UHGV virus genome: UHGV-0278151 | DNA length: 20,723 nucleotides | Strand: one strand, 5' to 3' | Source of the DNA: a virus | Part shown: positions 9,397 through 18,150 of the stretch, one piece after another | Position numbering within the stretch: position 1 is the first letter of the stretch | How the letters are laid out: the number at the start of each line of letters is the position of its first letter | The notes under the pieces: model-generated | What the model was told of the DNA's origin: nothing | Seen by the model: only the letters and a program-made list of their open reading frames with translations | The model's database searches: none | Made by a program: the position numbers and the translations under genes

Positions 9397-13077
<3,681 letters not shown>

Positions 13078-13103
<26 letters not shown>

Positions 13104-13623
13104 TCAGCAACCCCGGTATCAGTTCATCCAGCGCGGCTGCTTTGTTCATGGCTTTGATGATATCCCGTTTCAGGAAATCAATATGCCGGTTATCCAGCTC
13201 AGGAAAACGTCGCTGCACCGACAGAGGAATACCGTCGAGAATACTGGCAATTTCACCTGCGATCCGCGACAGCACGAAAGTACAGAATGCGGTTTCCACC
13301 ACTTCAGCGGAGTCTCTGGCATTTTTCAGCTCCTGGGCGTCAGCCTGCGCACGTGTAAGTCGATGGCGTTCGTACTCAATAGTCCCAGGCTGGAGATCTG
13401 CCTCGCTGGCCGCCCTGTAATCCTCAACCTCTTTACGGAGTTTTTCATTTTCGATATCAGCTTCCCTCTGCGCATACCACTGAATTGCCATGGCGGTATC
13501 AAATACAGATTCAACGCCCTTACCACCTCCGGAGACGCAAGGGAGTCCCTGAGACTGCCAGCGTTCAATCGTTCGCGGATCCACGTTGAAAATTTCGGCA
13601 AGTTTCTTTTTATTAACCTTCAT
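13078..13623 (-). CDS. Nu1: Terminase small subunit Nu1
   Basis: From ATG at 13621-13623 the translation is [36 protein letters not shown].... The C-terminal two-thirds match lambda Nu1 closely; the N-terminal DNA-binding region is divergent. Confidence 0.9.
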
Positions 13624-13639
13624 GAAACAGTCACACAAC

Positions 13640-13850
13640 AAATACAGAGTCCGACATGAAAGTGTCCGAAAATGACTTTTTCAGGCGTTTTCATGTCGGA
13701 CCTTTTACGGATTCGATATTAGAAAAAACAAATAGTTATGTTCGAGAAGTACCGACATGATTTTCCCCGGAAAATTTTCATAAATAGCGAAAACCCGCGC
13801 GCCTGCCGCCCCGTGGAAGGCCTCCCCACCGGAAGGACCCACACAAATGA
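13640..13850 (-). other. cos region (cosB with three R-like repeats, cosN, cosQ-like flank)
   Basis: The minus strand reads ...GGGTCCTTCCGGTGGGGAGGCCTTCCACG GGGCGGCAGGCG CGCGGGTTTTCGCTATTTATGAAAATTTTCCGG..., closely resembling the lambda genome ends as I recall them (GGGCGGCGACCT CGCGGGTTTTCGCTATTTATGAAAATTTTCCGG). Three copies of a CCGACATGA motif lie between cosN and the Nu1 start at 13651-13659, 13692-13700 (inverted) and 13752-13760. Confidence 0.8.
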
Positions 13851-14228
13851 GAGCGTTTATCATTAACATTTGCAGATAAGATGACGTACATCATTGAAAC
13901 GCCATTCAGCCATATACCGGCAGCATTCGTAGTTGCACTCCGTAACTCTGCGACTAAGGTTAAAAACATGGCCCTCTTTTGCCACCGGCAAATCTTCAAT
14001 GGATTTCCCCTGCCGGTTTTTTATTTTCGTCGATGCATAACATTGCATTTACATCAATAGCGGCTATTGTCATTAGTATGTTGCATCAATGCATGGGTGG
14101 TATTGGCGGTCTTCGCCGGCCGCTTCTGTGTAGCTGCTCCCTGTGACCGGTTTTTTATTTCTCACATTACAGCAACCCCTTAGAGTGAAGGGCTGCTGTA
14201 ATGCCTGTTACTCAGTAACTACCGCACC

Positions 14229-14537
14229 TTACGGTAATTTCATGAAGGCAAATACCGGACAGCCCGGATGACGAGCATCTTCTGTTGCTTCCAGCATTGA
14301 CTCACCAAACCACTCCGTCGTGGCGCGACCGTCAGCTGCTTTGTAGTGGATCAAGTACTGGTTTTCGCCATCCGCATACTGCGCACGGGCTTTAACCTCA
14401 CCCCATTCATCACTGATGCGCATCTCCACCAGTTGAGACAACTCAAACTTAAACGGAGCAGCATCAGCACCAATTACAATCGGTTTGTTTTCTGTTTTTC
14501 CATCATCGTCTCCTGATATCGAAGCCCGTCGCCGCAC
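14229..14537 (-). CDS. Hypothetical late-region protein (about 102 aa); start uncertain
   Basis: ORF between the lysis cassette and cos on the late strand. It has no in-frame ATG near its 5' end (GTG at 14535-14537 without a clear Shine-Dalgarno). A strong AGGAG+ATG lies in the +1 frame about 40 nt inside, next to an A-run. Confidence 0.5.
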   Translation of the reverse strand: MRRRASISGDDDGKTENKPIVIGADAAPFKFELSQLVEMRISDEWGEVKARAQYADGENQYLIHYKAADGRATTEWFGESMLEATEDARHPGCPVFAFMKLP

Positions 14538-14677
14538 CGGGCACTGATCAACATTTGAGTATTCGCGGCGACAGAAAGAATTTATTTTATTGAATAGCCA
14601 CTAACACAGAATTTCATGCTTTCCGGACGCTGGCGCGCCCTTCATTTTTCAGCAAAATATTCCGCTATTACAGATGA

Positions 14678-16002: not shown

Positions 16003-16155
16003 TTATTCAGATTTACGCAGTAAAGGCCGGAGCACGACCAGCGCCATCGCCACCAGCACACCATCTGCCAGCACCGACATCAGCCGTCCGGTGAAATCCA
16101 CCACCACTACCAGAAACAGCAGGATGGCAGCCAGCACAAGGCGCGCACTTTTCAC
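16003..16155 (-). CDS. Small two-helix membrane protein (about 50 aa), translationally coupled to upstream TerB-like gene
   Basis: GTG at 16153-16155 overlaps the TerB-like stop TGA (GTGA). The translation VKSARLVLAAILLFLVVVVDFTGRLMSVLADGVLVAMALVVLRPLLRKSE has two hydrophobic segments and charged ends. It is too short for the ORF track, which listed only ORFs of 60 aa or more. Confidence 0.45.
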   Translation of the reverse strand: MKSARLVLAAILLFLVVVVDFTGRLMSVLADGVLVAMALVVLRPLLRKSE

Positions 16156-16577
16156 AGGTACTGCTCCAGCGGCAACTGCAACGCCTGTGCAATTTTCTTG
16201 AGCTGCACTTCTTCATCAGGACCGATGCCGTCCTGGTCAGCAATATCCAGACACAGACACAGCACGTTAACTGCATCATCAGTACCGGCAACATCAGCCA
16301 GCTGACGAAGGGCTTCGGCATTGGCAGAACGCGGTGACGCTTCATAACGGGCGCGGATATTTGCACTCATTTGTGCAATCTCACCCGAGAACGGCGCAAA
16401 GGCAGGAAGTGCTGCAATGGTTTTCTCCAGCACAGCGATTTCTTTCGCATCACAGGTGCCGTCGGCGAATGCTATGGAATACGCACCCCAGACGGTCGCC
16501 TCCACTGCATCGCGGTTCTCCATCTTCTTCACTTCGGTAATGGCCTTGCGGGTTTTCTTTTTGAAAATACCAAACAT
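16152..16577 (-). CDS. TerB-like (tellurite-resistance TerB / DjlA N-domain family) protein
   Basis: 141 aa, MFGIFKKKTRKAITEVKKMENRDAVEATVWGAYSIAFADGTCDAKEIAVLEKTIAALP...DDAVNVLCLCLDIADQDGIGPDEEVQLKKIAQALQLPLEQYL. It shows the two-fold repeated pattern typical of TerB domains: a hydrophobic helix, an acidic DG motif, then E-rich and LxxIAxxL segments. Shine-Dalgarno AAGGA lies upstream of the ATG. Confidence 0.55.
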   Translation of the reverse strand: MFGIFKKKTRKAITEVKKMENRDAVEATVWGAYSIAFADGTCDAKEIAVLEKTIAALPAFAPFSGEIAQMSANIRARYEASPRSANAEALRQLADVAGTDDAVNVLCLCLDIADQDGIGPDEEVQLKKIAQALQLPLEQYL

Positions 16578-17242: not shown

Positions 17243-17312
<70 letters not shown>

Positions 17313-17640: not shown

Positions 17641-17673
17641 ATCGAATTCGATAATCGTTTTCGATTATCGATA
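17641..17673. repeat. Tandem dyad-symmetric sites ATCG-N4-CGAT (x2) plus TATCGATA
   Basis: ATCGAATTCGAT (17641-17652, perfect 12-bp palindrome), ATCGTTTTCGAT (17654-17665) and TATCGATA (17666-17673). They overlap the stop codon of the PemK/MazF-like gene and lie 12 bp upstream of the -35 at 17624-17629. Confidence 0.7.
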
Positions 17674-18066
17674 CAGATAAGCCATCCCTATCCCGTGCAA
17701 TACCGCCCGTTTAATATTCTCAAACTCATCTTCCGCAATCATAGGAACAATATAATTTCGTCCCTCCCAGGTTCTGGTTTTTATGCGATCCAGTCGGCTC
17801 AATGAAACCGTCATCAACATGTCACATTTTACCCAGCAAGTAATATGCTCATTACCAGGTATGGGGTTTTCTGATAACTCATGATGGCAATCTCTGCGAG
17901 GGAGCGGTTCAGTAGTGCTTATTGGTACCACTGTTACCAATTGATTGTTGTGCCTGTTTCTGGACACGACCACCACTGGCCTGACCTTGACTATTTCCGG
18001 AACAACCATTCCCCGAAAATCACACATTAAAACAGAACGAACAGACGGCTGATACTTTAATACCAT
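17665..18066 (-). CDS. PemK/MazF-family-like protein (candidate endoribonuclease toxin), no adjacent antitoxin ORF evident
   Basis: From ATG at 18064-18066 the translation is MVLKYQPSVRSVLMCDFRGMVVPEIVKVRPVVVVSRNRHNNQLVTVVPISTTEPLP...ITCWVKCDMLMTVSLSRL...EDEFENIKRAVLHGIGM. This aligns by motif with Kid/PemK and MazF/EndoA (GDIxxVDF-like strand, VRPxxVV, N..., VxVVPITS, hhxCDQhxTIDxxRL, C-terminal helix). Confidence 0.55.
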   Translation of the reverse strand: MVLKYQPSVRSVLMCDFRGMVVPEIVKVRPVVVVSRNRHNNQLVTVVPISTTEPLPRRDCHHELSENPIPGNEHITCWVKCDMLMTVSLSRLDRIKTRTWEGRNYIVPMIAEDEFENIKRAVLHGIGMAYLYR

Positions 18067-18150
18067 AAATCTCTTTGCCTGATAATGACGACTTGTGAAC
18101 TCCACTACAAACAAAATGATTCTGCTGAACAGGCAGTTTCGCACTATACA

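Follow-up and report, generated by a model that had tools for sequence, protein, structure and literature searches.

The interval 13640–13850 of the 20,723-nucleotide (20.7-kb) stretch of DNA analyzed here, which we call the window, is very probably the cohesive-end site (cosQ–cosN–cosB) of a lambda-family prophage with a predicted phage 21 packaging specificity, a variant cosN that is apparently tolerated, and the structure of a three-part mosaic. With a head operon on one side and the Q and lysis genes on the other, the interval joins the right end of a lambdoid phage genome to the left end, the place expected of a prophage cos. The lambda-like head operon fills the left part of the window with minus-strand genes; after gpA come W, B, C, D, E, FI, FII, Z, U, V, G, T, H, and M, all with lambda-like lengths, and the head and tail ORFs, those of Nu1, A, W, and B among them, are full length. 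To the right of cos are the Q antiterminator, two holin-like ORFs, and the endolysin. All cos elements and Nu1 read on the minus strand, and the 211-bp interval is 100% identical to a locus in E. coli EC21Z-048 (NZ_CP101269, at about 2.3376 Mb).

Scanning the window with Rfam gave no match in or near cos, and a promoter and terminator scan of 13550–14650 returned nothing beyond shuffle expectation. Two small minus-strand ORFs that overlap cos (13705–13869 and 13778–13999) were treated as non-coding by-products. Elsewhere in the window, Rfam matched a tRNA model at 17254–17311 on the minus strand, downstream of the Q antiterminator gene (48.5 bits, model positions 8–63 of 71), while ARAGORN called no tRNA anywhere in the window; the match may mark a phage tRNA gene that has been truncated or has degenerated. 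Between the gene for the Q antiterminator and those for lysis, the late region also holds two minus-strand ORFs (16152–16577 and 17665–18144) that are probably moron genes. For one of them the match is to a PHROG with a tellurite-resistance annotation; the other is weakly similar to a MazF-like growth inhibitor family.

As in lambda-like cos sites with 12-nt 5′ cohesive ends, where cosQ lies about 22–23 bp upstream of cosN, a cosQ here precedes a CG-flanked, partly symmetric 12-mer that resembles GGGCGGCGACCT. The heptamer GGGTCCT (13834–13840, minus strand) is identical in our alignments to cosQ of lambda and phage 21, the element of packaging termination (PMC4669245). It is followed by the spacer TCCGGTGGGGAGGCCTTCCACG (13812–13833, minus strand), which is 22 bp long here and 23 bp in lambda and is of the type found in cdtI, phi458, and ETEC H10407, unlike the spacer of lambda and phage 21. 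The cohesive-end 12-mer of cosN, with nick positions placed by homology, reads GGGCGGCAGGCG (13800–13811, minus strand) and matches the canonical GGGCGGCGACCT of lambda and phage 21 at 8 of 12 bases. The changes from lambda are at bp 8, 9, 10, and 12 only, in the right half; the left half, GGGCGG, is canonical, and the CG dinucleotides on both sides (13813–13812 and 13799–13798) are kept. The next 33 bp, CGCGGGTTTTCGCTATTTATGAAAATTTTCCGG (cos bp 13–45; 13767–13799, minus strand), are identical to lambda and span the place at which the phage 21 record M81255 annotates the IHF site I2. The minus-strand order is thus GGGTCCT–(22 bp)–GGGCGGCAGGCG–CGCGGGTTTTCGCTATTTATGAAAATTTTCCGG, and the variant cosN within lambda-like flanks that an earlier sequence-only reading had described is borne out.

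Variation of this kind has precedents. Mutations at cosN bp 7–12 have little effect and symmetric changes in the left half are severe, an asymmetry that depends on the anchoring of TerL by cosB-bound TerS (PMC4669245). Natural variants are known from N15 and phiD326 (bp 9 and 12), from Gifsy-1 (bp 8, 9, and 11) (PMC4669245), and from mEp213/LLS, where the 12-mer is GGGCGGCGCGCT (PMC4669245, PMC12315714); all of them keep cosQ, both CG flanks, and the left half and differ within bp 7–12 (PMC4669245, PMC12315714). The cosN of the window is likewise altered only within bp 7–12, with left half, CG flanks, and cosQ conserved, but it is another 12-mer, with four positions altered. Consequently, we place it in the published class of right-half variation, which is apparently tolerated. 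We know of no combined test of four right-half changes at once, including bp 12 beside the nick. A full-text literature search on the variant 12-mers, in both orientations, brought up unrelated papers only; Vahanian et al. 2017 (Virology 509:140–145), reportedly a survey of natural cosN variation, lay outside that search.

Three copies of a short repeat, two direct and one inverted, had been described for cosB, and exactly three are found. The element TCATGTCGG/CCGACATGA occurs three times in the entire window, all inside 110 bp, where 0.2 copies are expected, and three copies were reached in 1 of 100 shuffles. The cores lie at 13651–13659 (minus strand), 13691–13699 (plus strand), and 13752–13760 (minus strand). 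By alignment transfer from two phage 21 records (OL657228 and M81255), whose annotations cover cosN, R3, I1, R2, R1, and the ribosome-binding site, the elements of cosB could be placed as R3, I1, R2, and R1. The R3 box, AATCATGTCGGTACTT (13747–13762, minus strand; cos bp 50–65), aligns with the annotated R3 of OL657228. I1, an IHF-like site reading AAACAAATAGTTA (13726–13738, plus strand; cos bp 74–86), has one mismatch to the consensus WATCAANNNNTTR, is the sole site with at most one mismatch in 13600–13870, and occupies the position of the I1 annotated in phage 21. The R2 box, TTTCATGTCGGACCTT when read on the plus strand (13689–13704; cos bp 108–123), is inverted relative to R3 and R1, and the R1 box (13645–13661, minus strand; cos bp 151–167) contains the core TCATGTCGG at 13659–13651. 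In R3, bp 56 and bp 59 are both G, as they are in phage 21. Phage 21 and lambda are told apart at these two positions, which are both G:C in the former and T:A and C:G, respectively, in the latter (PMC4669245). Because of the annotation alignment and the G at both positions, the three repeats are assigned to the known R3, R2, and R1 boxes of phage 21 and to no new class. The description of the repeats as distinct thus stands in that they are unlike the lambda type; it fails in that they are no new set but the R boxes of phage 21, in a region 87% identical to that phage. This complex cosB, with R3, an IHF-like site, inverted R2, and R1, is followed directly by terminase genes of the Nu1 and gpA families. 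As a separate observation, a 24-nt imperfect inverted repeat (13649–13672/13678–13701; 83% complementary, with a 5-nt gap) takes in the cores of R1 and R2 and makes them part of a larger palindrome, and the matching segment of phage 21 appears similar in alignment.

The position of R3 also bears on where cosN would be cut. Nicking could have shifted, giving an overhang of another sequence or length than the aligned 12-mer, and two features point that way: the cosQ–cosN spacer is 1 bp shorter than that of lambda, and the set of rotationally symmetric base pairs in cosN differs from that of lambda, with 3/10 lost and 4/9 gained. However, the total symmetry stays at 10/16 bp, the same as in lambda, the CG flanks are kept, and R3, at bp 50–65, stands at an unaltered distance from cosN, a distance that in lambda determines where the nick is made (PMC4669245). 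We therefore regard a shifted nick as extremely improbable and take the aligned 12-mer as the predicted overhang.

The gene next to cosB encodes a small terminase subunit of the Nu1/gp1 family (181 aa; 13078–13623, minus strand; Pfam Phage_Nu1, 1.7e-90), whose ATG at 13623 corresponds to cos bp 189, the same position as in phage 21. Its two parts have different affinities. Residues 1–72 are identical to phage 21 at 63/72 positions and to lambda at 43/72, and residues 73–181 are identical to lambda at 105/109. The recognition helix (residues 17–24) reads RTIERWQS, as in phage 21 gp1, where lambda has RTIQNWQE, so that residues 20 and 24 are of the 21 type. Compared in 30-bp windows, the DNA resembles phage 21 between about cos bp 45 and 390 and lambda beyond about bp 420, and the crossover is therefore near TerS codon 70. 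Taken together, the small subunit is a natural chimera with a phage-21-type N-terminal winged helix-turn-helix (wHTH) and a lambda-type C-terminal part that binds gpA. The comparison with lambda and phage 21 that the sequence-only reading had called for agrees with what that reading claimed of the terminase: the N-terminus of Nu1 has diverged from lambda while the remainder is conserved, neither the repeats nor this N-terminus is identical to lambda, and both match phage 21. The DNA-binding domain and cosB have co-varied, as proposed, both being of the phage 21 type (G:C at R3 bp 56/59; the RTIERWQS helix). The variant cosN, judged from the sequence, is outside this swap of cosB and TerS specificity. 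The packaging specificity itself would be the classical difference between lambda and 21 (PMC4669245), of the textbook 21 type and nothing new. One residue close to the crossover is unlike both relatives, since residue 69 (13417–13419, minus strand) is Tyr in the window and Leu in lambda and phage 21; TerS mutations of lambda and phi80 that escape Rpp map to residues 65–70 (E65K, D68G, L69R, and R70P) (PMC6739421).

The large subunit, by comparison, is of the lambda type. gpA (641 aa; 11178–13103, minus strand; Pfam GpA_ATPase and GpA_nuclease), the enzyme expected to nick cosN, has 98.8% identity with lambda gpA but only 64.5% with phage 21 gp2. Residues 38–641 are identical to lambda, and all differences are in residues 1–37 (12993–13103, minus strand), at positions 8, 9, 10, 13, 14, 21, and 37. 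We take this end of gpA to be the one that binds TerS; the DNA coding for it overlaps Nu1 at the 3′ end of the latter gene. The matching frequencies of I8, I10, R13, and D14 in other prophages suggest that this set is inherited as a block.

To place the variant cosN in a population, matches were surveyed in E. coli genomes and viral contigs. Matches covering at least 80% of the 211-bp region were present in 551 of 5426 complete E. coli genomes. Among the matches listed, 120 IMG/VR contigs had a lambda-type right flank, and their cosN was canonical in 111, GGGCGGAAGGCG in seven, and a single-base variant in two; a targeted contig scan found at least 78 contigs with GGGCGGAAGGCG and at least four with GGGCGGCAGGCG. 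A scan of genome contigs with a short GC-rich pattern gave chance matches in high-GC genomes only and is uninformative on species distribution. The 65-bp cosQ–cosN segment of the window recurs at 100% identity in eight complete E. coli genomes among the matches listed, and it is not tied to one cosB. In EC71, APEC E19035, and NCCP 15734, lambda-type R boxes and lambda Nu1 follow the same cosQ–spacer–cosN segment. The GGGCGGAAGGCG allele is found with a lambda-type cosB in at least 51 contigs, with a 21-type cosB in at least 18, and with other cosB types as well; it sits behind at least five spacer types and is also present, with lambda cosB, in the deposited phage records PhiR46_1 and YDC107_1. 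In SE11 (NC_011415.1, about 1.765 Mb), the cosQ–spacer–cosN of the window precedes a third cosB that has neither lambda- nor 21-type R cores. There, a divergent 168-aa Nu1-family TerS (MAFLLNKSDMASSIGISVQAFDKWG...) follows, and this cosB and TerS may represent a further class of packaging specificity, set apart from the lambda and 21 types.

These assortments matter for the idea that the variant cosN forms one co-evolved specificity unit with cosB and the terminase, with an adaptation of either the endonuclease or the small subunit to the new nicking site. In the window, this cosN and a cosB unlike that of lambda do adjoin. However, the identical cosQ–cosN segment occurs with lambda-type, third-type, and 21-type partners, GGGCGGAAGGCG likewise pairs with both lambda-type and 21-type cosB, and gpA is lambda gpA from residue 38 on. 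Among the matches listed, 72 loci had a lambda-type gpA (at least 97% identity), with a canonical cosN in 32 and the AGGCG type in 39, and none of the 74 variable gpA positions in these 72 sequences segregated with the cosN allele. Co-adaptation of the endonuclease to the allele was rejected on this ground, and the co-evolved unit as a whole is very unlikely. Since the same allele accompanies lambda, 21, and third types of cosB and TerS and no gpA residue tracks it, cosN variation appears to be independent of the swap in cosB and TerS specificity.

It could also be argued that this is a decayed cos in a cryptic prophage, so that the right-half changes are neutral damage to an element that no longer packages DNA. 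The element is a prophage, known here from sequence alone, and GGGCGGCAGGCG with a 21-type cosB at 100% identity was found in only one complete genome, EC21Z-048. Against decay, cosQ, GGGCGG, both CG flanks, the three R cores, I1, and the spacing are all intact, as are the terminase, head, and tail ORFs, and no change lies outside the bases that published mutagenesis found to be tolerant (PMC4669245). Alleles of this family, moreover, span many flanks and cosB types and extend to deposited phage records. We consider decay unlikely and, for the same site, somewhat less likely still that the AGGCG-type right half is a functional allele and not a neutral one. If it were functional, it could alter the efficiency of nicking or termination, or a non-lambda overhang could partly keep the ends of the phage from joining those of lambda-type phages or cos-bearing satellites in the same cell. 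Such partial isolation, if true, would explain why the allele persists at a few per cent across mosaic backgrounds.

With a tolerated variant in a mosaic cos as the preferred reading, a mechanism can be proposed from the lambda and phage 21 literature. Dimers of the chimeric small subunit would bind the three 21-type R boxes through the 21-type winged helix-turn-helix, and IHF would introduce a bend at I1, which lies between R3 and R2. Through its lambda-type C-terminus, the small subunit would hold gpA, likewise of the lambda type, and gpA would nick cosN 12 bp apart to give 5′ overhangs of GGGCGGCAGGCG. Nicking of the right half is positioned by the cosB-anchored terminase and known to be insensitive to base changes, so that the cosN variant would be tolerated without a change in gpA. 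The mosaic itself would consist of a right genome end resembling cdtI and H10407 (cosQ, spacer, and cosN), a 21-like segment (cosB and the 5′ part of terS), and a lambda-like one (the 3′ remainder of terS, A, and the head genes). We infer that cosN and the 33-bp block to its right, likely a shared linker, are the crossover points between the genome-end modules.

If this is correct, the prophage should package DNA with a 21-type cosB and not a lambda-type one, despite its lambda-like large subunit and head genes. For annotation and prediction, packaging specificity judged from gpA alone would be misleading. TerS is, moreover, what the Rpp proteins of cos-type PICI satellites target (PMC6739421), and the type of TerS DNA-binding domain in a prophage is therefore relevant to helper–satellite predictions. 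The survey adds a small population-level confirmation of published genetics, in that natural cosN variation affects the right half and is linked to neither the cosB/TerS type nor gpA.

Known systems resemble the window in different parts. In phage 21 (OL657228, M81255), with 87% identity across the cos region and the 5′ part of terS, the order of the elements from cosQ on and the spacing of cosN, R3, I1, inverted R2, and R1 are identical, the ATG is likewise at bp 189, and the R core CATGTCGG and the TerS recognition helix are shared. Phage 21 differs in its canonical cosN (GGGCGGCGACCT), its lambda-type cosQ–cosN spacer, a G at R3 bp 54 where the window has A, and four positions in the TerS wing (residues 30–37); the C-terminus of its gp1 is only about 50%, and its gp2 only 64.5%, identical to the proteins of the window. 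Escherichia phage IdasGreatGrand (PP925829) is closer, with 97% DNA identity from cosN through terS and a TerS that is 99% identical and the same natural 21/lambda chimera, but its cosN is canonical and its cosQ–cosN spacer is of the lambda type. Prophages of the ETEC H10407/E24377A type share the spacer type, the 21-type cosB, and a chimeric TerS (98% identical), and their 211-bp region is 96.2% identical; their cosN, GGGCGGAAGGCG, has A at bp 7 instead of the C of the window. The spacers of cdtI and phi458 resemble that of the window, but their 12-mer is GGGCGGGAGCGT and their right flank and terminase are unrelated. The window is therefore mosaic, its junction lying at cosN. Where the small-terminase gene would stand, cdtI has a DUF1441-family protein. 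The overall architecture is that of lambda-21 hy51 from the Feiss laboratory, a viable phage of 21 specificity that combines the 21 cosB, the 5′ half of gene 1 with the 3′ half of Nu1, and lambda gpA, and that serves as a "21-specific helper" (PMC4669245). The window shares with hy51 the 21 cosB, the 21/lambda chimeric small subunit, and the lambda-type gpA. Its cosN differs, and the likeness is one of architecture, the crossover point aside; where hy51 came from an engineered or selected cross, the window is a natural mosaic.
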